Shown: positions 1-56,814, counted from the stretch's first letter. The stretch is 64,000 bases of DNA from an uncultured Clostridium sp. (GCA_948436975.1 CAOJJB010000001.1:80095-144094), one strand, 5' to 3'. Numbers and translations are program-made. The notes: generated from the sequence alone by a model not told the origin.

Positions 1-136
1 CATTATATAAAGTAGTTTTTGTATCTGAAAAGTGTCTTTCATAATTTGAATATATTGTTTCTAACTGTTCATTTAAAATGACGATTTTAACTGTTGTTGA
101 ACCTATATCTAACCCTACATGCAATAATTCTTTCAT
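1..136 (-). CDS. 5' end (45 codons) of a BadF/BadG/BcrA/BcrD-type ATPase (acyl-CoA dehydratase activase-like); continues past the window start
   Basis: Open-ended, so absent from the ORF track. The reverse complement of 1..136 reads MKELLHVGLDIGSTTVKIVILNEQLETIYSNYERHFSDTKTTLYN without a stop. LGxDxGSTxxK is the phosphate-1 loop of ASKHA/BcrAD-type ATPases. No strong RBS precedes the ATG (complement of 134..136). Confidence 0.5.
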   Translation of the reverse strand, partial: MKELLHVGLDIGSTTVKIVILNEQLETIYSNYERHFSDTKTTLYN

Positions 137-387: not shown

Positions 388-434
388 AGTCAAAAAAGAA
401 ACTCACAAATTTGATTTTTGTGAGTTTCTTTTTT
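388..434 (-). terminator. Rho-independent terminator of the hemolysin-III gene
   Basis: A perfect 15-bp stem (aaagaaactcacaaa 395..409 with tttgtgagtttcttt 417..431) and a 7-nt loop. On the minus strand a U-run follows (complement of caaaaaa at 391..397). Confidence 0.8.
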
Positions 435-1092
435 ATAGTTTTAAAACATATATTAATATAAAAAAGTATTGACATGCACTACCTAACATTACAAATATAT
501 GAAAAATTTCATGAAAACCGAAATGTTTAAATTTGATTTTTGGCCATTTGAAAGCATATATTAATCCGCCAATGGTATAAAATATACCACCAACTAAAAG
601 CCATAATAGACTATATAATAAATTTGCTTCTTTAAATACTTGTATTAATGGTATAGCAGCAATTAATACAAACCATCCCATTATAACATAAATACTAGTT
701 GTAAGTGCACGTGGAGCTTTTATCCAAATAGATGTGAGTATAATTCCTAAAATTGCTAATCCCCAAATAATACCAAATATACTCCATCCCCAAGGTCCTC
801 TTAATGGACCTAAACATATAGGTGTATAACTTGCAGCAATTAGAACATAAATCATTATATGATCAAATTTTCTAAATACGTTTAATCCTTTGCTTCCTAT
901 ATTTAACCAATGATATAGAGTGCTAAATAGATACATTAGGAAAAGTCCTACACCAAATATTGTAAAAGATACAACATCAAAAGCATCCCCCCATATAGCT
1001 GCGAAAACAATTAAAACTACTAATCCAATAAGTGATAGTCCTGCTCCGATACAGTGGGTTAAGCCACTTACTAAATCTCTAACTTTTGCCAT
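433..1092 (-). CDS. Hemolysin III / PAQR family membrane protein
   Basis: 219 aa with about 7 TM segments. Conserved His-containing motifs are LYHWLN and the C-terminal FGFHEIFHIFVMLGSACQYF, typical of the Hly-III/YqfA family. Confidence 0.85.
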   Translation of the reverse strand: MAKVRDLVSGLTHCIGAGLSLIGLVVLIVFAAIWGDAFDVVSFTIFGVGLFLMYLFSTLYHWLNIGSKGLNVFRKFDHIMIYVLIAASYTPICLGPLRGPWGWSIFGIIWGLAILGIILTSIWIKAPRALTTSIYVIMGWFVLIAAIPLIQVFKEANLLYSLLWLLVGGIFYTIGGLIYAFKWPKIKFKHFGFHEIFHIFVMLGSACQYFFILIYVLKL

Positions 1093-1263: not shown

Positions 1264-1857
1264 ATGCAAAAATGGATAATTTTAATAGTTGTTTTTATAA
1301 TTATAATATTAAGTATATTTATTATATCAAATGTTAGTTTTGAAACTGAATATACACCAGAGAGCGAAATTGAAGAAGTTGAACTTAGAAAAACAATAGT
1401 TACACTGTATTTTAAGGATAAGACATCTGGAGAATTGGCTAAAGAAACTAGATTAATAGATTCGAAAGATTTATTAAAAAATCCATACAATGAGTTGTTA
1501 GATTTATTAATTAGTGGTCCAGAAAATAGTAATTATGAAAAAATAATTCCAGATGGGGTATCAGTAATTGATAATAAATTTGAAAATGGATGTGTAACTA
1601 TTAATTTTAGTAAGGAATTGTCAGAATTAAATTTGGATGAAGCTTCTAAAACTAATATAACTAATTCTATTTTAAATACGTTAACTCAATTAACAGAAGT
1701 AAATAGTATAAAAATTTTAATTGATGGGCAAGAAATGGGAATAAATTTTGAAAATGTTAAAAATACAGGAAATGAAAGTAATGTTAATAATAATGTAAAT
1801 ATAACTAATACTTCTACAAATATAGAAAATATGACATTAAATGAAATCACTGAATAA
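1264..1857 (+). CDS. gerM: GerMN-domain protein (sporulation/germination GerM-like), N-terminally membrane anchored
   Basis: RBS aaaggagga lies upstream. The protein has an N-terminal TM. The segments TLYFKD...ETRLI...NPYNELLDLLISGP...IPDGVSVID...ENGCVTINFSKE...ILNTLTQLTEVNSIKILIDGQE match the GerMN pattern. There is a single domain and an Asn-rich tail. Confidence 0.6.
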   Translation: MQKWIILIVVFIIIILSIFIISNVSFETEYTPESEIEEVELRKTIVTLYFKDKTSGELAKETRLIDSKDLLKNPYNELLDLLISGPENSNYEKIIPDGVSVIDNKFENGCVTINFSKELSELNLDEASKTNITNSILNTLTQLTEVNSIKILIDGQEMGINFENVKNTGNESNVNNNVNITNTSTNIENMTLNEITE

Positions 1858-1918
1858 TAACTTATTGATAAATCCAATAAAAAATGCTAAAATAGAGTAG
1901 TTATAGGAGGAAGATTAG

Positions 1919-2656
1919 TTGTTGTTAGAAAATGAACGAATAGATGATTTAGAATATAAGGGATTAAAAATTATACAGAATAAAGAAGGTTTTTGTTTTG
2001 GCATAGATAGTGTATTGTTAGCTGATTATGCAAAAAATCTAAAAGATGACTCAACTGTAATAGATATTGGTACAGGAACAGGAATTATTTCACTATTATT
2101 ATGTAAAAAAACTAATTTACAGAAGATTTATGGTATAGAAATTCAAAAAGATGTTGCAGAAATGGCTGATAGAAGTGTAAAATTGAATAAATTAGAAGAT
2201 AAGATTAAGATAATAAATACTAATATAAAGGAAGTTTTTAATATTTTAAAACCATATCAATATGATGTTGTAGTAACTAATCCGCCATATAAAAAAATAA
2301 ATACAGGAATTAAAAATTTGGAAATAAAGAAACTTATTTCTAGACATGAAGTTGAATGTACATTAGAAGATATAATTGAAAATGCTAGTAGATTACTAAA
2401 AGATTTGGGTGAATTTTATATGGTACATAGAGCTGAAAGATTGGTTGATATTATGTGTTTACTTAGAAAATATAAATTAGAGCCTAAAAATATTAGATTT
2501 GTACATTCTAAAATAAATGATAAACCAACATTAATTTTAATAAGAGCTGTAAGAAATGCAAAAGAGTTTTTGAAAATAGATAAACCACTTATAATATATA
2601 AAAATAATAATGATTATACTGATGAAATTTTGAAAATATATAATAAAGATATGTAG
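1919..2656 (+). CDS. SAM-dependent N6-adenine methyltransferase, tRNA1(Val) m6A37 methyltransferase-like (B. subtilis YabB-like)
   Basis: TTG start lies 8 nt after AGGAGG (1905..1910). VIDIGTGTGI is SAM motif I and VVTNPPYKK is the NPPY catalytic motif. The gene sits directly upstream of rsmI, as yabB-yabC do in Bacillus. Confidence 0.7.
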   Translation: MLLENERIDDLEYKGLKIIQNKEGFCFGIDSVLLADYAKNLKDDSTVIDIGTGTGIISLLLCKKTNLQKIYGIEIQKDVAEMADRSVKLNKLEDKIKIINTNIKEVFNILKPYQYDVVVTNPPYKKINTGIKNLEIKKLISRHEVECTLEDIIENASRLLKDLGEFYMVHRAERLVDIMCLLRKYKLEPKNIRFVHSKINDKPTLILIRAVRNAKEFLKIDKPLIIYKNNNDYTDEILKIYNKDM

Positions 2657-2669
2657 AAAGGGATAATGA

Positions 2670-3506
2670 ATGTTAGGAAAATTATATTTAGTAGCAACTC
2701 CAATAGGTAATTTAGAGGATATAACGTTAAGAGCTTTGAGAATATTAAAAGAAGTTGATATTATTGCAGCTGAAGATACAAGACATACATTAGGTTTATT
2801 AAACCACTTTGAAATATCAAAACCTTTAATTAGTTATTATAAGCAAAATGAAAAAATTAAAAGTAATTTTTTAATTGAAAAGTTGCTAGAGGGAAAAGAC
2901 ATTGCAGTTGTTTCAGATGCAGGAACTCCAGGGATTTCTGATCCTGGGGAAGAAATAGTGAAGTGTGCAATAGAAAATAATATAGAAGTAATTCCAATTC
3001 CAGGAGCATGTGCATTAATAAATGCACTAATTGCTTCTGGTTTGTCTACAAGAGAATTTTGTTTTATAGGTTTTTTATCTTCTATAAAAAAAGATAAGAG
3101 AGAAAAATTAGAAGATTTAAAATATGAAACAAGAACATTAATTTTATATGAAGCTCCACATAAACTAAAGGGAACTTTGGAGAATATTTTAGAAATTTTA
3201 GGAGATAGAAAAATAGTTCTTGCAAAAGAAATTACTAAAATTCATGAATATTTTATTAGAAATAATGTAAGTAGTATTTTGGAAAGAATAGATGAAATAA
3301 AAGGTGAGTTTGTTATTTTAATAGAGGGAAGTATAGAATCTAAAAAAGATATTGAACTTATAAAGATGAATGAAATGTCTTTAGAGGAGCATTACAATTT
3401 ATATGAGAAACAAGGATTTACTAAAAAGGATATAATAAAGAAAATTGCTAAAGATAGAAATGTTAATAAAAATGAAGTTTATCAATCTTTTTTAAATAAG
3501 TCATAA
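2670..3506 (+). CDS. rsmI: 16S rRNA (cytidine1402-2'-O)-methyltransferase RsmI
   Basis: The N-terminus LYLVATPIGNLEDITLRALRILKEVDIIAAEDTRHT and the motif VSDAGTPGISDPG are hallmark RsmI/tetrapyrrole-methylase-fold motifs. Confidence 0.9.
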   Translation: MLGKLYLVATPIGNLEDITLRALRILKEVDIIAAEDTRHTLGLLNHFEISKPLISYYKQNEKIKSNFLIEKLLEGKDIAVVSDAGTPGISDPGEEIVKCAIENNIEVIPIPGACALINALIASGLSTREFCFIGFLSSIKKDKREKLEDLKYETRTLILYEAPHKLKGTLENILEILGDRKIVLAKEITKIHEYFIRNNVSSILERIDEIKGEFVILIEGSIESKKDIELIKMNEMSLEEHYNLYEKQGFTKKDIIKKIAKDRNVNKNEVYQSFLNKS

Positions 3507-3939: not shown

Positions 3940-4219
3940 ACAAAAAACTCCTTTCAATATACATAGATGAGATAAAATCACAGCTGTTAAGATGCTGTGA
4001 ATGGATATAGATAACAAATATCAACTTATTATAACATTTTTTAATTAATTAGTCAAAATTTTGTTAATAACACTTTTAATAATAGAGTTATACTATATTT
4101 CAGTAATATTACAAAATTAAATTACTAGGATTTATTAAGGTAATCTATTGTTTTTTTTATATAAAAATGATATATTATTTATGAAAAACTATAATAATAG
4201 ATATATTATGGAGGTTTAA

Positions 4220-5746
4220 ATGAGCAGAAGTCGAGGAAGAAGAGTTGATAATGTACCGAGGCTAAATATCAAAAAGGTATTTGCTACCATAATTGCAATA
4301 ATGGTATTTATAATGATAACAATTTCATTAAAGAAAATATTAACTTCTAATGATAAACAAACTAAAGATGTTTCTTCACTTACAACATATGTATCAGTTT
4401 ATGAAAATGACAAATGGGGAGTTATAGATAATAAAGGAAATAAAGTAATAAATTTAGAATATGATGAAATAGTGGTAGTTCCAGATGAAAATCAAGGGAT
4501 TTTTATTTGTACTTATAATATAGATTACAATAATGAAACATATCAAACTAAAGTTTTAGATGAAAAAGGAAAAGAAATTTTAACAGAATATCAAATGGTA
4601 GAAGCTTTAGAAAATACTAATAAAAATACTATTTGGTATGAAAGTAATGTTTTAAAACATCAAAAAAATGGAAAATATGGATTAATAGATTTTAAAGGAA
4701 AAGAGTTAATTGAACCTATATATGATAAAATATATGCATTACAAGGAATAGAAAAAAGTATTATAATAGAAAAAGATGGAAAAAAGGGGTTAGTAAATGG
4801 TAGTACAGGAGAAATAATAATACAACCTGAATATATAGAAATAAAAAGTATTGCAAAAACATATGAAGATGGTTATATAGTGAAAAATAATGAGAATAAA
4901 TATGGAGTAATAGCACCAGATAAAACTAAGATTTTGGAAGAAAAATATGATGATATAAAAAATGTTACTGGAAACAATTACTATGTTGTTGTAGAAAATG
5001 GAGTATTAGAAGTAGTTGATGCAACAGCTAATGTTATTTTAAATAGTGGTTATGATAGTATACAAGAAATTGAACTAGATAATTTTGTTATAATAAAAAA
5101 TAATAAGTATGGTGTAATAGATAAAGAAGGACAAACAATTATTGCACCAGATTATGATAAAATTCAATTTGCTTTTTCTGATTATTTTATAGCACAAAAA
5201 AGCGGTAAATATGGAATAATAGATAAATTAGGAAATATAAAGATTGACTTTAATTATAATAATATAAACTATATAAAAACAGCTGATTTTTTTGAAGCTG
5301 AAAAGGAAGATTACACATCAGATATAATAGATAGAAACTTTAATACAATTTTAAGTAGTACAATTATTTCTGAACTTAATATTGAAGATGGATATTTAAG
5401 AGTAAGAGTTAATAATGATTACAAATACTATAATTTTAAATTTGAGGAAAAAAGTAATAAAGAGATATTAACAAGAAATACATTATTTTTAGTTAAAGAA
5501 AATGGAAAGTATGGTTATGAGAATAAAAATGGAGATAGGATAGTAGACTGCATTTATGATGATGCAAAAGAACAAAATCAGTTTGGATATTGTGCAGTGA
5601 ATAAAGGTGGTCTTTGGGGAGTATTAAAATCAGATGGTACAGTAATCGTTGAACCAAGTAGAAACTTAGAAAACTATTTATATATAGATTTCATTTCTGA
5701 ATGGAATAGATATAATGATTTAAGTTTAAATGTATACACAAAGTAA
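4220..5746 (+). CDS. WG-repeat (KWG-type) protein, type II membrane anchored
   Basis: RBS ggagg lies upstream. A basic N-terminus (SRSRGRR) is followed by a TM segment. There are at least 8 repeats of the form K(W/Y)G(V/L/I)ID.(K/E)G..(I/V)I.P.YD, for example KWGVIDNKGNKVI, KYGLIDFKGKELIEPIYD and KYGVIDKEGQTIIAPDYD. Confidence 0.75.
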   Translation: MSRSRGRRVDNVPRLNIKKVFATIIAIMVFIMITISLKKILTSNDKQTKDVSSLTTYVSVYENDKWGVIDNKGNKVINLEYDEIVVVPDENQGIFICTYNIDYNNETYQTKVLDEKGKEILTEYQMVEALENTNKNTIWYESNVLKHQKNGKYGLIDFKGKELIEPIYDKIYALQGIEKSIIIEKDGKKGLVNGSTGEIIIQPEYIEIKSIAKTYEDGYIVKNNENKYGVIAPDKTKILEEKYDDIKNVTGNNYYVVVENGVLEVVDATANVILNSGYDSIQEIELDNFVIIKNNKYGVIDKEGQTIIAPDYDKIQFAFSDYFIAQKSGKYGIIDKLGNIKIDFNYNNINYIKTADFFEAEKEDYTSDIIDRNFNTILSSTIISELNIEDGYLRVRVNNDYKYYNFKFEEKSNKEILTRNTLFLVKENGKYGYENKNGDRIVDCIYDDAKEQNQFGYCAVNKGGLWGVLKSDGTVIVEPSRNLENYLYIDFISEWNRYNDLSLNVYTK

Positions 5747-5771: not shown

Positions 5772-7031
5772 GTGGAACTAATGACAAAATATCAATATAC
5801 GTATTTCATACATCCATATATTGTTGATGAAACAAGATATGATAAATATATATTAAAACTTTTAAAAGATAAGAAGTGCTTATATAAGGTTTTTGAAAAA
5901 GAGAAAGATTTAGATATATATAATTTCTTTTTACCTAATATAAGATCTTATTTGTTTCCTTCTTTTGAATTAAGAGGAGAAGGATTAAAAGAATTTAATG
6001 ATAGTAAGATAGAAAATAAAAAAAGAAAGATTTTAAAAGATTCAGTAGCGTATTTTACTTATGATTTTGCAGAAGATATACAAGGTAAAGTAGGAGCGGA
6101 GAATGGTATTTTCTTTAAAATAGAAGGAATAGAGATAATTTGTTTTAATACTGGAATATGCTTTTTTACAATGAAAACACATTTAGAAAATACTAATAAA
6201 TTTTCAGACTTATTAAACTTTAATTATAGATTTAAAGGTATAAATTCTGAATTTGCAGGGCTAAGAGATTATGAAAATATTAATATACAGACAGACACTT
6301 TTAATGATATTAAAGATATTTCAGAATTTATAAAACAGATTACTGGTATTAGTACAAGAAGTAAATCTTCTAATAAAGAAGATTTAGTTAATTCACAATT
6401 TTATACTTATTCTTATGTATGTGTTGAAACTAGTAATTGGAGTGAAAAATCAAGTTTTGATTATATTGAAAATGATTTTTTACGATTTGCCAATGTTTTA
6501 CCTAGTAATTATAATTCAGATTTTAATAAAGCTAATATAGAGCATAATTTGCATATAATAGAAAAATTTAAATATATCAAAACAACAATTTCAAATACTA
6601 GTTCAAATGTGATATGTTCTGGAATAGATACTTATAATTATACTAAATTGCCATATGAATATGAAAACCAATATTTTTATTTATATATTTTGTCTTTATA
6701 TAAAAAGATGTTTCTAATGAAACTTAATTCTGATTTTAGACAGTATGATGTAATTGTCAAGATGAGAGAAAGTTTTGCAAAATTTACTAGAAAGCTTTGG
6801 AATAAAGAAGTTACATTAGATGATACTGGTTCATTATACTATAAAACATTAAATAATACATTAGAATTAAATGAATTATATACAGAAATTCAAAATAAGT
6901 ATGAAGTAATTTATAAAGACTTAAATATAGAGAAAAATAATAGATATTATTCTATAATAGTTATATTATTAATATTTTCTTTAATGTTTAATACTGTAAA
7001 TATTATATTTTTAATGTATTGGTTATCTTAA
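5772..7031 (+). CDS. Hypothetical protein with a C-terminal membrane segment (419 aa)
   Basis: GTG start lies 8 nt after aaaggtagg (5755..5763). The body looks like a soluble alpha/beta region, followed by long helices (QYFYLYILSLYKKMFLMKLNSDF) and a hydrophobic tail (YYSIIVILLIFSLMFNTVNIIFLMYWLS). No recognisable catalytic motif. The gene is tightly packed between the WG-repeat gene and acpS. Confidence 0.6.
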   Translation: MELMTKYQYTYFIHPYIVDETRYDKYILKLLKDKKCLYKVFEKEKDLDIYNFFLPNIRSYLFPSFELRGEGLKEFNDSKIENKKRKILKDSVAYFTYDFAEDIQGKVGAENGIFFKIEGIEIICFNTGICFFTMKTHLENTNKFSDLLNFNYRFKGINSEFAGLRDYENINIQTDTFNDIKDISEFIKQITGISTRSKSSNKEDLVNSQFYTYSYVCVETSNWSEKSSFDYIENDFLRFANVLPSNYNSDFNKANIEHNLHIIEKFKYIKTTISNTSSNVICSGIDTYNYTKLPYEYENQYFYLYILSLYKKMFLMKLNSDFRQYDVIVKMRESFAKFTRKLWNKEVTLDDTGSLYYKTLNNTLELNELYTEIQNKYEVIYKDLNIEKNNRYYSIIVILLIFSLMFNTVNIIFLMYWLS

Positions 7032-8602: not shown

Positions 8603-11600
8603 ATGAAAAGGAAAATGTTAATCTCAATTGCATTAATTATGATTATGCTATTGAATTGCATGATGCCAATTATGGTAAATGCAGTAACAGGTGAAGAGAT
8701 TCAACTAAACAGTAACTTATATAAAGCTGTTAAGAAAAGCCTTACAATACAAGGTATAGAGTTTTCAGCTGATGATGTTACTCACAAGTTAACTTTAAGT
8801 AATGGTACTAAATCTTCAATAACAAGATTAGACTTAAATGAAGCTTCAATTACAGATTTGACAGATTTAGATCAGTTTACAGAATTAACACACTTAGAGT
8901 TATCAGGAAATAATTTAACTCAAACAAGTAATTTAAATGTATTAAATAACTTATCAAAGTTAAACTATTTAGATTTATCTACTAACCAATTAGAAAATGT
9001 TAGTGATATAAAAAACTTAATAACTACATTACAAGAAAAAGGAACAATTATACTAAGTGGTCAACAGATTACTAGTATTGAAAAAGTTTTTGTAGATGGT
9101 GAAGAAGATTCAGACAATGCAGAAACTGCTACATTTGAGTTACCAAGTATATTAGAATTAGCTGGTTATATAAAATCAAATTGGAAATCAACAAAAAGTA
9201 AAGCAGAAACATCAAATGATATAGCACCATTTATAAGTGTTGATAGTATTCCTATGTATGTAACACCAGATAATAATAAAATATCAGTTAATATAAGCAG
9301 TGAAAGTGGTAAAGGATACAAAGGTCTACTAGAAGTTAATATACATATTTATGATGATGCTACTGAGGCTGGTAGTGCTAAAAATCCAAATAAAGCTGCT
9401 GAAAATATTTTAAATGGAAGTCAATTTAAACTTTATTATGTTGTACATGATAAATCATCAGAAGCTATTACTACAATGGATACAAATTTATATTATGCTA
9501 TAAAAGAGCAATTAACAGCTGGTCAAACTGTAAATTCACAATTAGAAAGCTATCCATACTCTGTTGATAAAAATGGAGATATTATATATCAAACTTATAC
9601 ATATACAACATCTGGAAATAATAGAACTTTAACAAATACAAAAACAGGTACAAATGATTATATATATGATTATAAAACTAATATTTTATATAAAAATAAT
9701 TCAGGAAATAAAGGTGCTGTAGTAAATACTATAGTAGAACCTACAATTGTTAATACAGCAGATGGTAATGGTACTATTACTTCAAAAGAAGGATATAAAG
9801 TTGCATATATAGGACAAGAAGCAAATAAGACACTTTATATTCAAGCATATGATGATGCTAAAACATTTGTAATAGATGATTTAGTTTTAACAAATAAAAT
9901 AACATCATTAATATTAAATAATAAACAAATTAGAGATTTAGATGGAATAGAATGTTTTATAGGTTTAACAAGTAAATTAAATGTTTCTCATAACTATTTA
10001 GATAATTTAACAGCTTTATATTATATGGATGCTCAAAAAGATAGTTGGGAAAAACAAATTGTTGATAAATATAATGATTATTTGAGAAATAGAAGTTATG
10101 GAAATTTATCAAAATCAGTAGAAAATGCTAAAAAAGTACAAGAAGATATAAATAAAAATTCTCAAGATATAACTAATGCATATAATCAAATTATAAACTT
10201 ATTAGTAGATGCATCTAAATTAGATGCTACAAAAGAGAATTATGAAGATGAAATAAAAAATAAGGCAACTTCTATCGAAAAAATATTAGATTCAATATAT
10301 GGATATACAGATGAACAAGGAAAATATCAAGCAGGTTATGTAGATAAAATAAAAGGATATACAGATGCTGGTAAAGCTGTAAAAGGTAATGTTGATGATT
10401 TAAATAAAGAAATATCTCAAATGTATAATTATTTAGCAAAATTATATGTAATATATAATAATGAATATAAATTAACAACTTTGTTAAGTCCTAATGTTAA
10501 TTATATAACTTATGATGAATATGAAAAATATGATAAAGCAACACGTGAATCAGCAGATACAGCAAAAGCTTTAGTTGAAGAAGAAATTGAATATTTAAAA
10601 ACTTTAGAGGCAGCAGGTGGTTTATCTGATTTAGATAAAGAATTATTAAAAACAGCTTTTTCAGGACTTAAATTTGATTCAGAAGAGGACAAAACACCAT
10701 TAGCAGATTATTTTACAAAATATTTAGAAGAAAATGCTTTAGGTAGAGTAAAATCATTAGAATTATTAGATAAATTTAGAGAAATAGGTATTTATTCAGA
10801 AATGGCAAATTATTGCCTAATTAAAAGAATGAATAAAAATACACCTAGTGGATATTGTTATGAAGAGGAATACTTAGAAAATAGAATAAAAGAATTAGAA
10901 ACAGAGGAAATTCCAACAGTTTTAGAACATAAAATGTTAGAATATGTAAAAAATAAAACTAAATATAATCAATTAGGTTTAAGCGAAGTATATGATAAAT
11001 ATAAAAATACTAAGTATACATATAAATTTGAAACTACTGCTATAGAGGTAAGTACATGCAAAGGTGCATATGATAGATTACATAATCAAACTCCTATAAT
11101 TGCTGGAACTAATGGATATACAAGCGAGCAATTAATAAAAAATGCGAAAGAAGCAGCAAAATTATTAGATACAGATACTACACAAATTACAAGTATAACT
11201 AATGTAGTAAATAAATTAGCTGGAAATGCAACTAGAGTAATTAGTAAAGTAGATTTATATGAAGTAATTGGTTCAACAACAAAATATACAAGTGAAGTTA
11301 ATAAATTATTCTTATATAATCAAATGATGAGTTTATCAAATAAATTATTAACTGGAGATGTAAGTAGATATGTTACATTACCAAGACTTAAAAACTTAGA
11401 TATATCATATAATGCTGAATTAGAAGATATATCAAGAATATCTGAATTAGAAACACTATATGAATTAAATGCAAGTTATTGTTATATAGGAGATATAGTA
11501 AATATTGATTGGACAGCTATGCCAAATCTAAAAAGATTATCTTTAGCATATAACTATATATCAGATATAAGCTCATTACTAGATATATCAACATTAAAAT

Positions 11601-12691
11601 CATTAGATTTAAGTAATAACTTAATATCAGGAAAATTAAATATTTCTGAACAACAATATATGAAATTATTCAAAAGAATGGAAGAATTTAATTTAGCAGG
11701 AAATCAAATTACAGATATAGAAAGCTTATTAATATATTTAGATTATATATCATCAGGAAATTATGCTAATTATTTAGCAAGAGAAGATACATTAAATATA
11801 AATTTAAATAATCAAGATATTGAATTAGTAATTAATGATAAAATAAGTTTAGAACAATATCCTACAACAATTGATGTAGAATTACCAAAAATATTTACAC
11901 AATTATTAGCAATAGATACAGAAAGAACAGGATTTGGTGAAACAAGCCAAAAAGGAAGAATAGAAGCCGAAGGAAAATATGTTACATTAAATACAAGAAC
12001 AGCAGGAGATAAAATAGGAAAAGTAGAAGTATTACCTATGAGTGGTAATGGAACAAAAGTGGATACATGTGTTGGAAGTGGAACAACAGCAACTATATAC
12101 TATACTGTTGAAGGAAATGCATCAAATCCAAATCCACCAGAGAACCCAGGAAATACAACAGATCCAGAAAATAAGCCAGTAGATCCAGGAAATATAATAG
12201 ATCCAGGAAACCCAGATGATTCAAACACAGGTGTTGATACAAGTAAGTTAGGATACAGAGTGGGAGAAGAATATTTAACAAATGTAGCAGCTATGACACC
12301 AGTTTCAGATTTCAAAACAATTTTACTAAATGGATTACAATATAATGTGGTAGTAACAAAAGATGAAAAAGAAGTTACATCAGGAAATATGATGACAGGT
12401 ATGTATGTAAAGATTTTAGATAAAGATGGAAATACAGTAGAAGATCAAAATGGAGACCTTTTAGTATATCAAGTAGTAGTAAAAGGTGATGTAAATGGAG
12501 ATGGAGTAGCAAATGCTTTTGATTCTAATTTAATAAAAGCATATAGAGTTGAAGTAACAAGATTAGAAGGAGCAGAATTTGAAGCAGCAGATATAAATAG
12601 TGATGGAAAAGTAGATGTTACAGATTCAAAACTATTATTATATCATAGAGCAGAAGTAGCAGGATATAACTTAAACTTTTCAAAAAAATAA
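8603..12691 (+). CDS. Secreted leucine-rich-repeat (internalin-like) protein with a long helical middle region and a C-terminal dockerin
   Basis: Signal peptide MKRKMLISIALIMIMLLNCMMPIMVNA. There are three blocks of about 22-aa LRRs, for example ITRLDLNEASITDLTDLDQFTELTHLELSGNNLTQ and LKRLSLAYNYISDISSLLDISTLKSLDLSNNLISG. A Pro/Asn linker reads NPNPPENPGNTTDPENKPVDPGNIIDPGNP. The C-terminus carries duplicated DVNGDGVANAFD and DINSDGKVDVTD Ca-binding loops. Confidence 0.8.
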   Translation: MKRKMLISIALIMIMLLNCMMPIMVNAVTGEEIQLNSNLYKAVKKSLTIQGIEFSADDVTHKLTLSNGTKSSITRLDLNEASITDLTDLDQFTELTHLELSGNNLTQTSNLNVLNNLSKLNYLDLSTNQLENVSDIKNLITTLQEKGTIILSGQQITSIEKVFVDGEEDSDNAETATFELPSILELAGYIKSNWKSTKSKAETSNDIAPFISVDSIPMYVTPDNNKISVNISSESGKGYKGLLEVNIHIYDDATEAGSAKNPNKAAENILNGSQFKLYYVVHDKSSEAITTMDTNLYYAIKEQLTAGQTVNSQLESYPYSVDKNGDIIYQTYTYTTSGNNRTLTNTKTGTNDYIYDYKTNILYKNNSGNKGAVVNTIVEPTIVNTADGNGTITSKEGYKVAYIGQEANKTLYIQAYDDAKTFVIDDLVLTNKITSLILNNKQIRDLDGIECFIGLTSKLNVSHNYLDNLTALYYMDAQKDSWEKQIVDKYNDYLRNRSYGNLSKSVENAKKVQEDINKNSQDITNAYNQIINLLVDASKLDATKENYEDEIKNKATSIEKILDSIYGYTDEQGKYQAGYVDKIKGYTDAGKAVKGNVDDLNKEISQMYNYLAKLYVIYNNEYKLTTLLSPNVNYITYDEYEKYDKATRESADTAKALVEEEIEYLKTLEAAGGLSDLDKELLKTAFSGLKFDSEEDKTPLADYFTKYLEENALGRVKSLELLDKFREIGIYSEMANYCLIKRMNKNTPSGYCYEEEYLENRIKELETEEIPTVLEHKMLEYVKNKTKYNQLGLSEVYDKYKNTKYTYKFETTAIEVSTCKGAYDRLHNQTPIIAGTNGYTSEQLIKNAKEAAKLLDTDTTQITSITNVVNKLAGNATRVISKVDLYEVIGSTTKYTSEVNKLFLYNQMMSLSNKLLTGDVSRYVTLPRLKNLDISYNAELEDISRISELETLYELNASYCYIGDIVNIDWTAMPNLKRLSLAYNYISDISSLLDISTLKSLDLSNNLISGKLNISEQQYMKLFKRMEEFNLAGNQITDIESLLIYLDYISSGNYANYLAREDTLNINLNNQDIELVINDKISLEQYPTTIDVELPKIFTQLLAIDTERTGFGETSQKGRIEAEGKYVTLNTRTAGDKIGKVEVLPMSGNGTKVDTCVGSGTTATIYYTVEGNASNPNPPENPGNTTDPENKPVDPGNIIDPGNPDDSNTGVDTSKLGYRVGEEYLTNVAAMTPVSDFKTILLNGLQYNVVVTKDEKEVTSGNMMTGMYVKILDKDGNTVEDQNGDLLVYQVVVKGDVNGDGVANAFDSNLIKAYRVEVTRLEGAEFEAADINSDGKVDVTDSKLLLYHRAEVAGYNLNFSKK
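12485..12665 (+). other. Dockerin module (type-I-like duplicated EF-hand loops) of the LRR protein
   Basis: GDVNGDGVANAFDSNLIKAYRVEVTRLEGAEFEAADINSDGKVDVTDSKLLLYHRAEVAG contains two DxNxDGxxxxxD loops, each followed by a helix. Confidence 0.8.
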
Positions 12692-12902
12692 AAGTAATTT
12701 GTAGTATATAAAATAAAATTTGTGAAAAAATATTAGTTAAGATTAATTTTATAGGGGAGTGCAAAGCACTTCCCAAACAAATAATATGTTTAAAAATATT
12801 TTTATTGTAAATAAATGTCAAATATACCAAAAAAAGGTATTGCAATTTAAAATAAGAAATGATATTCTTATAGTGTACAAGCAAAAGAGGAGAAGAATAA
12901 TT

Positions 12903-13820
12903 ATGAAAAAAAGTAAATTAATAATATTGCAATTATTTATTGCATCTGTACTAATCTGTACAAGTGTATATGCTGCTGTAAGTACGACTATAGGACTTTC
13001 AGTTTCTAATACATCTGTTAAAAGAGGTGATAAAGTTACTGTAACATTATCTTTGAAAGATGTAGATAGTAGTAAAAAAGTAACAAGTATTGATGGTTAT
13101 ATTAATTATAATACTAATATTTTTGAAACAATTAATGTTGATAGTATACAGAAAGATTCTGATGGTACTGTACAGATAGGAAATGAAAAATTGAAAGTAG
13201 AAGATGTAACAAATGCAACAGTAGAAGACTTACCAAGTTCATCAGCATATATAGCTTTTAATGGAGCACCATTAAGTGATGAAAACAATACAAGAATTGT
13301 AATTGATTTTAGTAGTGGAATTAATGCAAATACAGATTTATTAAAAATAGATTTTAAGGTAAAATCAGATGCTTCAATAGGAGAAATAAAAAATGCAATA
13401 ACTTATTCTAATTTTCATATAACAGCAGGATCAGAAGTAGTACAAGTTACAGAAAATATTAGCTTAAATATACAACAATCAGGAAATACCCAAAATCCAG
13501 ACCCTGATGAAAATAAGAATGAAAACAAAAACGAAAATATAAATGAAAATAACAATAAAAATGAAAACAAGAATGAAAATAAAAATGAGAATAAAAATGA
13601 TAGCAAAAATGAAAATAAAAACACAAATCAAAATATAAACAAGAATACAAATAAAAATATAAATAATACAACTAATATTTCAAATAGAAATATTAATGAC
13701 AATAGAGCATCAGGAATATTACCAGCAACAGGTGCAAAAGTTATAATATTACCAGCAATAGCTTTAATAATACTAGCATGTGTATGTTATAACAAATATA
13801 TAAAATATAAAGACATATAA
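12903..13820 (+). CDS. Cell-wall-anchored (LPATG) cohesin-like domain protein, a putative anchoring scaffoldin
   Basis: I shortened the track ORF (12759..) to the ATG at 12903 (MKKSKLIILQ...), which has agaggag about 8 nt upstream and begins a signal peptide. A beta-rich module of about 165 aa reads VKRGDKVTVTLSLKDVDSSKKVTSIDGYINYNTNIFETINV...LLKIDFKVKSDASIGEIKNAITYSNF and fits the cohesin pattern. It is followed by an Asn/Lys spacer, then LPATG (13719..13733), a TM segment and the basic tail YNKYIKYKD. Confidence 0.65.
   Translation: MKKSKLIILQLFIASVLICTSVYAAVSTTIGLSVSNTSVKRGDKVTVTLSLKDVDSSKKVTSIDGYINYNTNIFETINVDSIQKDSDGTVQIGNEKLKVEDVTNATVEDLPSSSAYIAFNGAPLSDENNTRIVIDFSSGINANTDLLKIDFKVKSDASIGEIKNAITYSNFHITAGSEVVQVTENISLNIQQSGNTQNPDPDENKNENKNENINENNNKNENKNENKNENKNDSKNENKNTNQNINKNTNKNINNTTNISNRNINDNRASGILPATGAKVIILPAIALIILACVCYNKYIKYKDI
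13506..13702 (+). repeat. Low-complexity Asn/Lys/Glu-coding microsatellite-like tract (NENK repeats), a putative wall-spanning spacer
   Basis: Imperfect reiterations of aatgaaaa(c/t)aa(a/g) encode NENKNENKNENINENNNKNENKNENKNENKNDSKNENKNTNQNINKNTNKNINN. Confidence 0.8.
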
Positions 13821-13846: not shown

Positions 13847-13876
13847 AAAGAGATAGTTGAAACTATCTCTTTTTTG
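13847..13876 (+). terminator. Rho-independent terminator after the cohesin-like gene
   Basis: aagagatag (13848..13856) pairs with ctatctctt (13863..13871), with loop ttgaaa, followed by a T-run. Confidence 0.75.
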
Positions 13877-14019: not shown

Positions 14020-15492
14020 ATGAAGACAAATTATAAAATTTTTTTAGCTATATTATTTGAATTAATAATTTTAATAGGAATAGTAATAATAGGATTTAAA
14101 ATAAATAAAAAAGAAATAAATGTTGTAAATAAAAATATAGAACTTAATGCAGAGAATTTTGAAACAGAACAAATAAACAATACATTAAAAGAACATGAAA
14201 TAGGGTCATATAATTTAAAAAAAGATGCTACTATTGTATTAAAGTATATAGATAGAAATACTAATGAGGAAATATCAGAAGAAGTAATAAAAAAAGGAAG
14301 AATACTTGAAGAATATGACATTTCAGAACAACAAAAAGAAATATCTGGATATGTAATAGTTGAAAAGCCAGAATCAACAGGAAGATATACAAAAGAAAGA
14401 GAAGAAAAAGTATATACTTATGCAAGAGAAAGTAAAGTAATAGTAAATCATATAGATAAAAATACAGGAACAAAGCTAGAAGTATCAGAATACATTGGAA
14501 AAGAAGGTGATAAATATACATCTTCACCAAAGGATATAGAAAATTATGCAATTATAGAAGTACCTGAGCAAGAAACAGTAACAATGACAAAAGAACCAGT
14601 AACAATAAATTATTATTATGATAAAATATTAACAGGAGCAATAGAAAAACATATAGATATTACTACAAATGAATTATTAGAAACAACATTATATGAAGGA
14701 TCAGAAGGAGCAGAGTATAATACAGTATCGAAAGAATTTGAAGGATATAGTTTAGTAGAAAGTATGTTACCACAAAATGCAAATGGGCAATTAGGAGTAG
14801 AAGTAATAGAAATTAAATATTATTATATAAGAAAAATTTCAGTGAAAGTAGAATATATAAATAATATAACAAAACAACAAATAGAAAATAGTACAGAAAT
14901 AATAAGGGGAATTGAAGGAGATTCTTATAAAACAGAAGAAAAAAATTTTAATGAGTATAAACTTATATCTAAAACAGATAATATAACTGGAGAAATGAAA
15001 GCTATACAAAATGAACAAGGAAAAATAAATGATGAGATATTAGTGCAATATTATTATGTTAAAAAATCAGGAGGAGTGAAAGAACAACATATAGATAACG
15101 AAACAGGAGCTTTGTTAAAGGAAATAGTATATACAGGATATGAAGGAGAGAAATTCAATACTAATCCTAAATTTTTTGAAGGTTATGTATTATTAAATAA
15201 AGAAATACCTACAGAAATAGAAGGTATAATGAAAGAAAAAGATATAATAATAAAATATTATTATAAAAAGTTAGATCAAATAAAAGGCGAAGTTGCTAAT
15301 ATAGATAGTGAAGATACAGATAATAGTATGGTGGATACAGGAGATATATTAGTAATTACATCAATAGTAGTAGTTATTATATTAATTTTAATAAATACAT
15401 ATGAATTTAGTAGAGAACATAGAGAAAAAATAAAGAAAAAGATACAAGAAAAAGGATATAGAAAATTAGTAAGAAGGAGAATAAAAAGGTAG
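14020..15492 (+). CDS. Surface protein with five MucBP-like repeats, an N-terminal TM and a C-terminal TM plus basic tail
   Basis: Five repeats of about 65-75 aa have the form (V/I)xxx(Y/H)IDxxTxxxL....Y.G.EG..Y......F.GY.L.........(I/V)..YYY, for example VIVNHIDKNTGTKLEVSEYIGKEGDKYTSSPKDIENYAIIE...VTINYYY. The C-terminus reads MVDTGDILVITSIVVVIILILI followed by the very basic tail REHREKIKKKIQEKGYRKLVRRRIKR. Confidence 0.7.
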   Translation: MKTNYKIFLAILFELIILIGIVIIGFKINKKEINVVNKNIELNAENFETEQINNTLKEHEIGSYNLKKDATIVLKYIDRNTNEEISEEVIKKGRILEEYDISEQQKEISGYVIVEKPESTGRYTKEREEKVYTYARESKVIVNHIDKNTGTKLEVSEYIGKEGDKYTSSPKDIENYAIIEVPEQETVTMTKEPVTINYYYDKILTGAIEKHIDITTNELLETTLYEGSEGAEYNTVSKEFEGYSLVESMLPQNANGQLGVEVIEIKYYYIRKISVKVEYINNITKQQIENSTEIIRGIEGDSYKTEEKNFNEYKLISKTDNITGEMKAIQNEQGKINDEILVQYYYVKKSGGVKEQHIDNETGALLKEIVYTGYEGEKFNTNPKFFEGYVLLNKEIPTEIEGIMKEKDIIIKYYYKKLDQIKGEVANIDSEDTDNSMVDTGDILVITSIVVVIILILINTYEFSREHREKIKKKIQEKGYRKLVRRRIKR

Positions 15493-21370: not shown

Positions 21371-24300
21371 ATGAAGAGGAAAAAAAATATGCTAAAAAGA
21401 ATATTAGTAATAGCATTTTTATTAAGTATATTATCTAATCACTTAATGATTTTAGGTGAGGTAGCTAATATTGCTTTGGCAACAGATGTTGAGTGGAAAT
21501 CAGATTTTACAAGTGATATAAATACTGATAATTCACAAGAAAAAAATATTGAAGAAGAGGGGGAAAAATCTGACAGTTCTGAAGAAATCTTAGAAGAACC
21601 TAATAATACTGTTTCAGATGATATACCTGAAAATGAAGTAATTGTAGAAGATACAACTTCAGAGGAAAATGAAAAATCAGATGAAAGTATTCAAGATAAA
21701 ACACTTACAGAAGATGAAATAAAGAAACTTCAAGAAATTAAAGTTGATACTGAATTAGAAGTCAATAAAGTTATTAGATTTGATAATGAAGTTGAAAAAG
21801 GTGTTTTAGCAGATGTAATACTTAAATTTAATATTGATACAAAAGAATTTACTATCGATAATATGAATATCAATTTTGAACTTCCAAATATATTAGGAAT
21901 ATTGCCAAATAAATTTAAATTTGAAGAAATGTCTGATAATATAAGTTTTTCAAGAGAAGATGGTACAAATAGAATATCTTTAAATGCGAAAGATGTTTTA
22001 AATAATAATGAAGAAGTTAGATTAATTTTGGTTTATTCAGAAGATGCTTTTGATGGAAAAGAAATAAAAATTCTTGGAGATGTAATATTAGAAAAAGCAG
22101 GATATCCTATAAATCAAAGTTTTGAAGCAAATAAAGAATTACCAGATAGTACTGAAATCTTTGCAACTTATGGAATAAAATCAGAAAATGCTAGTAAATA
22201 TAAAGGTTATTTGTATGCAAATACTGTGTTAGAAAATAAAAAAGATTTTCCTTATACAATAGTTGATGTAATAGATATTAAAGATAAAGACTTTATAGAC
22301 GAAATTATAGTAGAAAATAACATAGATAAAATAGTATTAGATACAAAGGAAATAGATTTAATTAATTTAGTTACATATAAGTCTACTTCAATAAATGTTG
22401 AGGAATTTAACTCTATATTAGGAGAAGATGGATATATAGAAATATATAACCAATTAAATGAAAAAATTGGTGAAATTAATAAAGAAACTCAAATAAGAAA
22501 TAATAGTTATGTATTTGATTATAGTGTTGATGTAGATAGAGTAACTTTTAAAATTAAAAATATTAAAGAAAATCAAACTTTAAATATTAAAAATGAAAAG
22601 ATAATTAAGGGTACAGATACATTTTCAAGAGATTATGTAAAATCATTTAAAACAATAAAATCACAGACTATAAATAAGGTAGCAAAAATTATTGATGATA
22701 ATGAAGTTGTAGTACAAAGTATTAATACAGAGAATAATATAAATTTAGAAGAAACTGAATCAAAAATGACATTAGAAATGAGTACAAAAGATTTGATTAC
22801 AACTGATACAAATGAAGTAACATTTACTACTGTTTTAAAAAATAATGAAGAGGCTTATGAATTATTTAGAAATCCAGTGATTTCTATTGAATTACCAGAA
22901 GCGGTGGAAAGTGCAGAAATTAAAAATGTTAATTTATTATATAAGAATGGTTTATCATTAGAAAATTGGAACGTTATAAAAAATGAACATGGTTTAAATG
23001 AAATACAGGTTGCTTTATCTGGAACACAAAATGAATATGAACCAGGTACATTAATCGAAGGAACAACAGTATTAGTTACAGCTGATTTACATTTAAATAA
23101 AATTACAGCTAATGGAAAGAGTACAGTAAAACTTAGATATACAAATGAAATAGGAACTAATATTTCTTATGCAGTAGTTGGTAAGAATAGTGAAGATATT
23201 GAAGTTAATTATGTTTCAAGAAGTGGTATATTAAAGGAAACTAAATTAGAAAACTTTAATAAAGAAAATGAAGTTTTAGTAGGATATGATGATCAATCAA
23301 TAATAGGAAAAATAGACACAGATACTGTAGCTAAAACAGCAAAAGTTTCAACAGTAATAATGAATAATTATAATAATGATATAAGAAATGTTGAAATAGT
23401 AGGTAAAATACCATTTGTTGGTAATACAAAAGATGGAGTAGATTTAAATACAACATTTAATACAAGTCTTGCTGATAAAATTGATCTAAATGGATTAGTT
23501 GGAAAAGTATATTATTCTTATGAAGAAGATCCAGATAGAGTTAATGGAAATTGGATGGAAACTGTTAATGATTTTTCGCAAGTAAAGAGCTTTAAAGTTA
23601 TTTTAAATAATTCTAGTATGAAGGTTGGAGAACAAGTAGAGGTTTCATATAACTTAAATATTCCAGAAAATGTTGGATATAATGAAACTGCATATAATTT
23701 GTTTACAACTTACTATAATTTAAATAATGAGGAAATATCAGATTCTTCTATTGTTGGATTAGAAACAGAGGTTAAAGATATTCAAATTGAAGATTGCCAA
23801 GTAGTAGAGGAAACACCTGAATTAACTATAGGAACACAAGTTACAAGAGCAGGAACAGCATTAGAGGAGAACGAAGAAGTAAATGAAGGGCAGATTTTAA
23901 GATATAATGTAGTAGTAACAAATAAATCTAATAAACCAATAACAAATATTAATTTAAAGGGGTTAGCGGAAAATACTAATAGCTATTATTGGCATACATT
24001 TACTATAACAAGTAGTACAGATGGTGAGGAAACTTTAACAGGAGAATGGAAAGAGGATTTAGAAGGTAAACATTTATATGAAGAGTTAAAAATAGAAACT
24101 TTAGCTCCTGGTGAAACAGCTAATTTTGAATATCAAGTAAAAGTAAAACATTTAAATGAGATTAAAAATCCAGAGATATATGGAAAAGTTTTAATTTCAG
24201 CTGATGGCATAGAAGAAAAAGAATATAATACTATTAAAAATAAGATAAGAAAAGCAAAAATAGAATTAAGTGTAACAAGAAATGGTCATGAAAATGCTAA

Positions 24301-56169: not shown

Positions 56170-56814
56170 ATGAGAAATAAAAGAATTTTAGTAATATCAA
56201 TAATAGTATTTATAATAGTTGCATTGGTTGCATTATTATTAGTTTTAAATAAGGGACATATTGGAGAATATTCTTTGGTATATGTAGAACCAGTAGAAGA
56301 AAAAGAAGAAGAGATAAAGCCACAACTTAAATTAGAATTAGAAAAAGAATTATTATCATCAAAAAACAAAAAGGAAGTATCAGAAATGACAGTTACAATA
56401 GATGGAGAAAATGTTACAGAAGGAGTAGAATTTTCTTCATCAGATGAAGAAGTAGTAAAGATTAATGAAGATAATAAATTAGTAGCAGTAAAAGATGGAA
56501 AATCTATAATTACAGCTACATATGATGGAATGGATGCAACAGCAGAAATAAGAGTAATAACACCAATAAAATCTATGACATTTAGTTCAACAAATAGTAC
56601 AATAAGAGTAGGAAAAGACTTACAAATGAAACTAAAAGTAACACCATCAGATGCTTATATAGATACATTAACATACACATCAAGTGATGAGGAAATTGCT
56701 ACAGTTGATGCAAGTGGAATAGTAACTGGAGTAGCTCCTGGAAAAGTAATTATAACAGTATATGATACATATACTGAAACAGAAAAGTCAGTAAAATTGA
56801 CAATAAAAAAATAA
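56170..56814 (+). CDS. Membrane-anchored protein with two Big_2 (bacterial Ig-like group 2) domains
   Basis: RBS agaggag lies upstream and the protein has an N-terminal TM. The first Big_2 pattern is VEFSSSDEEVVKINEDNKLVAVKDGKSIITATYDGMDATAEIRV and the second is LTYTSSDEEIATVDASGIVTGVAPGKVIITVYD. Confidence 0.75.
   Translation: MRNKRILVISIIVFIIVALVALLLVLNKGHIGEYSLVYVEPVEEKEEEIKPQLKLELEKELLSSKNKKEVSEMTVTIDGENVTEGVEFSSSDEEVVKINEDNKLVAVKDGKSIITATYDGMDATAEIRVITPIKSMTFSSTNSTIRVGKDLQMKLKVTPSDAYIDTLTYTSSDEEIATVDASGIVTGVAPGKVIITVYDTYTETEKSVKLTIKK

Follow-up and report, generated by a model that had tools for sequence, protein, structure and literature searches.

In Clostridium perfringens, the cohesins and dockerins that join enzymes to one another are modules of the glycosidases and toxins and not of a dedicated sortase-anchored cohesin protein. 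Dedicated anchors of this kind have been described in other bacteria. ScaE of Ruminococcus flavefaciens has a single cohesin and an LPXTG motif and is covalently linked to the wall by sortase, and proteins that combine leucine-rich repeats (LRRs) with a dockerin occur in the same organism (PMC2930009). Sca2 of Ruminococcus bromii, a single-cohesin protein with a sortase signal, has been found in vitro to bind dockerins from a 2xLRR protein, a peptidase and enzymes; the authors of that work put it forward as a general mechanism for surface anchoring (PMC4611034). Limousia cSca5 carries an N-terminal cohesin plus LPxTG and is predicted to hold the adaptor scaffoldins, glycoside hydrolases (GHs) and peptidases of a gut 'mucinolysome' (PMC12997984). 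With these precedents, the anchoring concept is already known. The subject here is a pair of neighbouring genes, at 8603-12691 and 12903-13820, in a 64,000-nucleotide stretch of DNA from an uncultured Clostridium sp. (GCA_948436975.1 CAOJJB010000001.1:80095-144094), called the window below. The pair is real and conserved, and is probably a non-cellulosomal cohesin-dockerin anchoring system. The explanation favoured, with a probability of about 0.72, is that it forms a conserved two-gene surface-display module of a Candidatus Scatovivens-like gut Clostridium, in which the cohesin holds the X-dockerin (an X module followed by a dockerin) of the LRR protein encoded next to it.

The pair is made up of the following features, each given with the analysis on which it rests.

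8603-12691, plus strand: gene for a 1362-amino-acid (aa) secreted LRR-X-dockerin protein (open reading frame; Pfam LRR_4, LRR_8, Dockerin_1)
12116-12238, plus strand: Pro/Asn/Asp-rich linker from the LRR body to the X-dockerin, aa 1172-1212 (read from the sequence)
12239-12481, plus strand: X module directly before the dockerin, small, beta plus one helix, aa 1213-1293 (AlphaFold2)
12482-12688, plus strand: dockerin with two Ca-binding loops and the C-terminal extension KLLLYHRAEVxGYxLN[YF], aa 1294-1362 (Pfam, PDB, Foldseek)
12885-12892, plus strand: Shine-Dalgarno sequence AAGAGGAG of the cohesin gene, 10 nt upstream of its ATG (sequence)
12903-13820, plus strand: gene for the 305-aa anchoring cohesin protein, signal peptide aa 1-24 (open reading frame, Shine-Dalgarno sequence, conserved N-terminus)
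12975-13478, plus strand: cohesin module, aa 25-192 (Pfam Cohesin, AlphaFold2, Foldseek)
13488-13718, plus strand: Asn/Lys-rich spacer, aa 196-272 (sequence; AlphaFold2 pLDDT about 30)
13719-13817, plus strand: sorting signal, consisting of LPATG (13719-13733, aa 273-277), a hydrophobic segment and the tail NKYIKYKDI (sequence)
13847-13872, plus strand: terminator-like hairpin and T run after the cohesin gene (consensus scan; weak evidence only)

The map of open reading frames shows a 353-aa frame at 12759-13820 after the LRR gene. Translation is placed at the ATG at 12903 because AAGAGGAG lies 10 nt upstream and because the N-terminus MKK.KLI is shared by all of the aligned homologues (63/63); the gap to the LRR gene is therefore 211 bp. 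The same consensus scan that picked out the hairpin found no terminator-like site between the two genes. The 305-aa product has 282 homologues, all of them nameless or hypothetical proteins of 'Clostridia bacterium' metagenome-assembled genomes (MAGs), and most carry precomputed matches to the Pfam Cohesin family, PF00963. The window protein itself matches this family over aa 32-186 and profile positions 3-132 of 139, with 35.0 bits against a cut-off of 24.1 (E 2e-8). In an AlphaFold2 model based on 63 homologues, aa 30-190 are all beta with pLDDT mostly above 90, and the model has the flattened beta-sandwich or jelly-roll fold of a cohesin. When Foldseek compared this model with the PDB, the top 20 matches were all cohesins at a probability of 1.00; matches include CaCohA2 (6kgd) and cohesins of OlpA, OlpC, CipA and CipC. 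The best TM-score, 0.74, is to the C. perfringens GH33 cohesin 2vo8, and type I cohesins score 0.61-0.64. The profile matches of the cohesin and the dockerins, with E values of 2e-8 to 7e-12, argue that these are not chance motifs.

Downstream of the cohesin lies the 77-aa spacer, with 33 Asn and 10 Lys, which is disordered in the model; homologues keep its composition and vary in its length, and it is presumed to be a wall-spanning stalk. The sorting motif reads LPATG or IPAAG in the 63 homologues, with P274 and G277 invariant. By its sequence, the 305-aa protein has the complete architecture of a sortase-anchored single-cohesin scaffoldin of the ScaE, Sca2 or cSca5 kind.

The LRR protein begins with a signal peptide and has internalin-like LRR blocks at aa ~70-160 and ~908-1042. 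LRR_4 scores 66.6 bits (cut-off 27), with its best stretch at aa 997-1042, and a phmmer search of the PDB matches the LRRs of internalins A, H and B (InlA with E 1.6e-10 over aa 909-1041). A Listeria-type internalin was considered and rejected, as the LRR blocks alone match and the NCBIfam internalin_A model scores 47 bits, far short of its cut-off of 1600; as judged from these comparisons, the protein is internalin-like in its repeats only. At its other end, Dockerin_1 (PF00404) matches aa 1294-1345 with 37.4 bits (cut-off 22.9), and a PDB search with this region also matches dockerins. The Ca loops, DVNGDGVANAFD and DINSDGKVDVTD, begin at aa 1296 and 1330 (DNA 12488 and 12590), and their Asp/Asn residues are invariant or at least 90% conserved among 23 sequences. 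AlphaFold2 predicts the last 149 aa with pLDDT 91 and pTM 0.86, the X module of about 80 aa being packed on a three-helix dockerin as one rigid body. In Foldseek, the helical part and 2ccl_B, a type I dockerin of C. thermocellum, superimpose with a TM-score of 0.93 and a root-mean-square deviation of 0.9 A over 61 residues. The two Ca-loop segments and the three-helix fold of a type I dockerin are both present. The X module of the LRR protein has no fold match in the PDB by Foldseek, and the X that precedes both of the dockerin types described here has no Pfam family; a related X module stands before the dockerin of a 4044-aa protein encoded farther along the window and before that of small cohesin-X-dockerin adaptors in related genomes.

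A preliminary description, made from the sequence alone, had anticipated much of this. It placed duplicated Ca loops at the end of the LRR protein, within 12485-12665, where the loops at aa 1296 and 1330 and the Dockerin_1 match now stand. It also described the protein 211 bp downstream with its signal peptide, cohesin-like module, Asn/Lys spacer, LPATG, transmembrane segment and basic tail, and each of these elements was recovered; the profile score and the predicted fold bear out the cohesin assignment in particular. The C-terminal loops, for which generic Ca-binding repeats were conceivable, are truly those of dockerins, with profile matches above the cut-off on both proteins and a type I fold for the LRR one.

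The locus belongs to a gut Clostridium with a GC content of 25%, from the Ca. Scatovivens / CAG-508 (TANB77) group. Candidatus Scatovivens is placed in GTDB in the order TANB77, family CAG-508 (PMC13106387), and it is the name of several of the 26 cohesin-bearing GTDB MAGs found here. These 26 loci come from a scan of GTDB species genomes, MAGs from mouse, rabbit, chicken, sheep, roe deer and human gut. The count covers the species-level GTDB genomes that were retrieved with the cohesin. In 26 of the 26, the genes follow one another in the order conserved 419-aa gene, acpS, tatD, LRR-dockerin, cohesin, LemA, M48 peptidase, G5/3D protein. The flanking housekeeping genes are 70-90% identical to those of the window, the LRR protein only 28-61% and the cohesin 40-76%. 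The unbroken linkage of the LRR-dockerin and cohesin genes argues for a functional pair.

The pattern of conservation within the LRR protein points the same way. All LRR orthologues end in the same dockerin, with its nearly invariant tail KLLLYHRAEVxGYxLNY. Across 16 species, mean pairwise identity falls from 70% in the dockerin through 58% in the cohesin module and 55% in the X module to 47% in the remainder of the LRR protein, making the dockerin the best-conserved part of that protein. Evolutionary distances of dockerin and cohesin correlate with r = 0.65, and those of dockerin and LRR body with r = 0.39, which suggests pairing of the two modules, short of proof. In some MAGs the LRR-dockerin gene is broken into shorter open reading frames of 249 and 822 aa (contig L014, 9116-9862; contig L020, 7398-9863), and many database entries are dockerin-only fragments of about 95 aa. 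Assembly or frameshift errors, or pseudogenes, could lie behind this.

The favoured model for the pair can be laid out as a short series of steps. The 305-aa protein would be exported, and a sortase encoded elsewhere would cut it at LPATG and link it covalently to the peptidoglycan. The disordered Asn/Lys stalk would then lift the single type-I-like cohesin past the wall, and the cohesin would bind the X-dockerin of the neighbouring LRR protein in a non-covalent, Ca2+-dependent manner, keeping that protein on the surface. In some relatives the same cohesin may hold a protease or an adaptor too.

Several points weigh against this model. Among window open reading frames of at least 150 aa there is no match to Pfam Sortase, and no frame with a TLxTC motif occurs in the window or in 40 related loci. 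The sequence signal of the cohesin is modest (35 bits), and the sequence and profile matches to PDB entries (the CipC, ScaC and OlpA cohesins) cover only the N-terminal third of the module. Adjacency and correlated divergence can also arise from shared rapid evolution of surface proteins, without direct binding. Finally, 34 of the 40 scanned carriers of the LRR-type dockerin (see below) are themselves LRR proteins, and thus 'general anchor' may overstate the role of a cohesin that could belong to a dedicated pair.

The carriers of the LRR-type dockerin were collected by an exhaustive phmmer search with that dockerin, followed by Pfam scans of 40 representatives. The matches are single and C-terminal, at 53-77% identity. 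The 34 LRR proteins include three that also have a papain-like domain; the remainder are two BspA-type LRR_5 proteins, one S8 subtilase with Big_2 domains (P0311) and three small secreted cohesin-X-dockerin adaptors of about 295-313 aa (P0316, P0330 and P0339). P0316 is above the Pfam Cohesin cut-off (25.3 bits), and P0330 and P0339 are related to it. The presence of the same dockerin type on a few other proteins in relatives argues that the cohesin acts as a base anchor, like ScaE, Sca2 and cSca5.

Two of these carriers map to one variable site. In the window this site (137-1263) lies between a conserved minus-strand gene at 2-136 and a Germane-domain gene at 1264-1857, and holds HlyIII (433-1092, minus strand). 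Relatives have in its place either an S8 protease-Big_2-X-dockerin gene or a cohesin-X-dockerin adaptor together with a protein bearing an N-terminal dockerin. The S8 carrier is on a contig of the same clade (L036); downstream of it come Germane, MTS and TP_methylase genes, which share 64-80% identity with window 1264-3506. A 303-aa frame upstream of this protease was tried as an adaptor and rejected: it has no Pfam match, and nothing in its translation resembles a cohesin or a dockerin. As this frame overlaps the beginning of the protease frame, it may be the N-terminal part of that gene, separated by a frameshift. The 295-aa adaptor P0339 (contigs L040/L041) consists of a signal peptide, a cohesin-like module related to that of P0316, an X module and the LRR-type dockerin. 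The gene upstream of it is 89% identical to window 2-136, and the gene right after it encodes an N-terminal dockerin with Big_3 and Big_2 domains.

The second dockerin of the window belongs to the 4044-aa protein, some 30 kb from the cohesin gene.

43796-55930, plus strand: gene for a secreted 4044-aa protein with an NPCBM/CBM51-like domain, many immunoglobulin (Ig)-like repeats and a C-terminal X-dockerin (Pfam, PDB)
55529-55927, plus strand: X module, aa 3912-3981 (alone 55529-55738), and nearly symmetrical dockerin of the second type, aa 3982-4044 (Pfam; alignment with cohesin-X-dockerin adaptors and other carriers)

The NPCBM domain scores 72 bits (cut-off 23.9) over aa 104-247 (DNA 44105-44536), and the same region matches PDB entries 2vmg/2vmh with E 8e-14. 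Big_3_2 matches aa 2676-2761 with 56.7 bits (cut-off 23.3). The preliminary description had called this an Ig-repeat/NPCBM/discoidin protein; the first two parts stand, and the discoidin (F5/8 type C) match is weak, at 19.4 bits and below its cut-off. The description's claim of a second dockerin at the end of the giant is upheld by a Dockerin_1 match of 45.8 bits (cut-off 22.9) at aa 3982-4033, a test made at the sequence level only. A search of the window with a paired-loop expression finds just these two dockerins.

They are clearly of different kinds. The Ca loops of the giant are DIDGNGKITVTD / DINNDGNITATD, and the compared segments read ..FDSNLIKAYRVEV.. / ..TDSKLLLYHRAEVAGYNLNF in the LRR protein and ..TDLARMKLHLIE.. 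/ ..TDLAKIKLILIN.. in the giant, where the two halves are nearly symmetrical. Over X module and dockerin together the two proteins are about 30% identical. A search with the last 300 aa of the giant finds its dockerin type on fragments of Ig-repeat/NPCBM giants and on a second set of cohesin-X-dockerin adaptors of about 300 aa (P0206, P0198, P0203 and others), all on contigs of about 26% GC. This word-indexed type of search gave only proteins close in size to the query, namely fragments of 62-121 aa with the 78-aa LRR-type dockerin and nothing above 524 aa with the 300-aa query, and domain-only queries therefore miss full-length carriers. A 3957-aa orthologue of the giant is found in mouse MAGs.

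One contig, L030, from a 26%-GC gut organism, brings several of these elements together. Adaptor P0206 there adjoins a 2682-aa giant of the M26 (immunoglobulin A protease) family with an N-terminal dockerin. At 4199-4945, beside fragments of a gene resembling that of the 4044-aa protein, the contig encodes a 248-aa protein with a signal peptide, a cohesin, LPKAG, a transmembrane segment and a basic tail. For the arrangement of LPKAG cohesin, adaptor and M26 protein, the positions are this stretch and 1397-9445 of contig L031. The L030 cohesin is distant from that of the window; BLASTP finds no match between them, and hhalign gives a probability of 97.5% over 74 columns. The set suggests a wider use of cohesins and dockerins for proteases and adhesins in such bacteria. 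At the level of sequence, at least two dockerin groups exist, which argues that the preferred partner of the giant is another cohesin; it is probably a different one, encoded outside the window. The 214-aa protein with a transmembrane segment and Big_2 beside the giant (56170-56814) was tried as a hidden cohesin and ruled out, with an hhalign probability of 1.4%.

These data bear on how far the docking extends. The preliminary description had proposed a sortase-anchored platform that displays interchangeable giants. The platform itself is in keeping with the complete sorting signal and the linkage to the LRR gene in 26/26 loci; the interchangeability fares worse, given two dockerin types with X-dockerins of about 30% identity and the separate cohesin of L030. 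One might still suppose that a single promiscuous cohesin docks the LRR protein, the 4044-aa giant and any other dockerin protein, for one cohesin is seen in 64 kb against two dockerin proteins, each with a related X module before its dockerin, and Sca2 and cSca5 have many different dockerins as known or predicted partners. However, the two dockerins have strongly different recognition helices, the dockerin type of the giant forms its own family on other proteins, the L030 gene resembling the giant's adjoins a different LPKAG-anchored cohesin, and in the window it is the LRR gene, not the distant giant, to which the cohesin gene is linked; promiscuity of this kind is accordingly doubtful. Slightly better placed, and still tentative, is a hierarchical network in which the 305-aa cohesin is the base anchor and secreted cohesin-X-dockerin adaptors present a second cohesin to other dockerins. 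The adaptor gene directly before an N-terminal-dockerin gene in L040/L041, the passing of the Pfam Cohesin cut-off by P0316, and the parallel adaptors with the giant's type of X-dockerin beside an M26 giant with an N-terminal dockerin would all fit such a scheme, which resembles the anchor-adaptor-cargo arrangements of cellulosomes. Nevertheless, the window has no adaptor gene, the site used by adaptors in relatives being occupied by HlyIII, and the assignment of cohesins to dockerins is conjectural throughout.

Two further explanations would change the nature of the system rather than its extent. The pair could be the visible part of a mucinolysome- or amylosome-like enzyme complex whose dockerin-tagged GHs are encoded elsewhere in the genome, of which the analysis covers 64 kb. 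The NPCBM/CBM51-type glycan-binding module of the giant, the MucBP proteins encoded nearby, and the Limousia LPxTG cohesin that anchors GHs and peptidases for mucin breakdown lend this some plausibility. However, no GH family is found in the two window dockerin proteins by Pfam, NCBIfam or PDB sequence searches, just as the preliminary description had claimed for its two cargos, and none in the 40 scanned carriers of the LRR-type dockerin; moreover, CAG-508 genomes are small (one near-complete contig is about 1.17 Mb). An enzyme complex is therefore unlikely. There is also no multi-cohesin scaffoldin, the window having one cohesin and the relatives single-cohesin adaptors only. With neither GH cargo nor a multi-cohesin scaffoldin in the 64-kb window and the scanned carriers, the system is not a cellulosome, amylosome or mucinolysome as these are defined, and those labels are rejected. 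The other explanation is that cohesin and dockerins do not interact at all, the dockerins serving for Ca binding, stabilisation or another ligand, and the adjacency reflecting co-regulation of surface proteins. In its favour, many non-cellulosomal dockerins are not known to have a partner. This explanation is very improbable in the face of linkage in 26/26 genomes, a dockerin conserved more strongly than any other part of a fast-evolving protein, and two canonical folds whose homologous architectures bind experimentally. The paired anchor and LRR cargo remain the favoured reading of 8603-13820.

A broader proposal extends the pair to the whole lineage. The uncultured, small-genome CAG-508/TANB77 gut Clostridia might possess a glycosidase-free network for adhesin display, with at least two orthogonal X-dockerin specificities, LPXTG base cohesins and secreted cohesin-X-dockerin adaptors. 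The network would mount proteases (S8, papain-like and M26 immunoglobulin A protease-like) and giant adhesins of the LRR, NPCBM or Ig-repeat kind on the cell surface for attachment to host or partner, and cognate cohesin and dockerin genes would stay side by side as exchangeable cassettes. This is speculative and, on balance, improbable.

Turning to the surroundings of the pair, GC content across the window is 23-30%. Four very large secreted or surface proteins (8603-12691, 21371-32965, 43796-55930 and 57202-64000) take up 54% of it, a striking share against the near-complete contigs of about 1.2 Mb of this lineage. The gene at 21371-32965 encodes a 3864-aa DUF11/SdrD_B protein, which may have a non-canonical sorting signal of a PPxTG-like type, unlike the LPATG of the cohesin protein: at its C-terminus (32800-32965), ...LTPPTGLE precedes a hydrophobic segment and a basic tail. 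The SpaA/MucBP protein at 57202-64000 has at least 2266 aa and runs past the window end. Between the cohesin gene and LemA, at 14020-15492, lies a gene for a 490-aa protein with an N-terminal transmembrane segment, five MucBP repeats and a C-terminus of ...NSMVDTGD, a transmembrane segment and a very basic tail. It was seen only in contigs of this species (L001 and L003, with its start also in L002), and in the other 26 species the cohesin gene is followed directly by LemA. The 419-aa protein at 5772-7031, directly upstream of acpS, is 65-90% identical across all related loci; it has a C-terminal transmembrane segment and no match in Pfam or NCBIfam. The window has no Rfam match at gathering thresholds, and a promoter scan was uninformative in 25%-GC DNA (62 sites against 68 expected).

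The value of the locus is that it provides a concrete, testable model of how an uncultured gut lineage with a reduced genome holds very large host- or glycan-binding surface proteins. The mode of anchoring is familiar for Gram-positive surfaces and is newly described in this lineage: a literature search found no paper linking TANB77, CAG-508 or Scatovivens with cohesins or dockerins. Neither the cohesin protein nor the giant is matched to a family in NCBIfam. With this locus, non-cellulosomal anchoring by cohesin and dockerin reaches beyond ruminococci, Limousia and C. perfringens, while the understanding of how cohesin-dockerin systems work is unchanged. The naturally paired, strongly conserved couple of cohesin and X-dockerin, with a probable second, orthogonal dockerin type, has potential use in the engineering of surface display.

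Among the known systems, that of C. perfringens is alike in being a non-cellulosomal use of cohesins and dockerins in a low-GC gut Clostridium; it supplies the best TM-score match to the window cohesin (2vo8) and shares the CBM51/NPCBM module (2vmg). The Limousia mucinolysome is likewise a non-cellulosomal cohesin-dockerin system of the gut, but it has mucin-degrading GHs and multi-cohesin scaffoldins, whereas the cargo here is LRR/adhesin-like and protease, with at most single-cohesin adaptors in relatives. The type III ScaE of R. flavefaciens and R. champanellensis resembles the window anchor, and its partners ScaB and CttA carry an X-module-dockerin dyad. However, ScaE anchors a cellulosome, the dockerin fold here is type I, and the X module is unrelated to those of the ScaE partners (4iu2 is a weak match). 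Orthology with ScaE was considered and rejected, since ScaE (2zf9_B) ranks 47th among the fold matches with a TM-score of 0.41, and type I and C. perfringens cohesins rank first (0.61-0.74); this ranking, closest to type I, argues that the window cohesin, though it would work like ScaE, is not its orthologue. Sca2 shares with the window anchor its small size, one cohesin and a C-terminal sortase signal. It differs in belonging to Ruminococcaceae and in having GH13 amylases as its main cargo, whereas the window lineage is TANB77/CAG-508 and no GH cargo is seen; in addition, the anchor gene here is fixed beside an LRR-dockerin gene, the dockerin comes with a novel X module, and there is no detectable close sequence relationship between the two proteins. 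What sets the present locus apart, then, is the lineage in which it occurs, an anchor gene strictly linked to the gene of an LRR cargo, the new X module, and the hints of a two-specificity network with adaptors and with giant adhesins and proteases.

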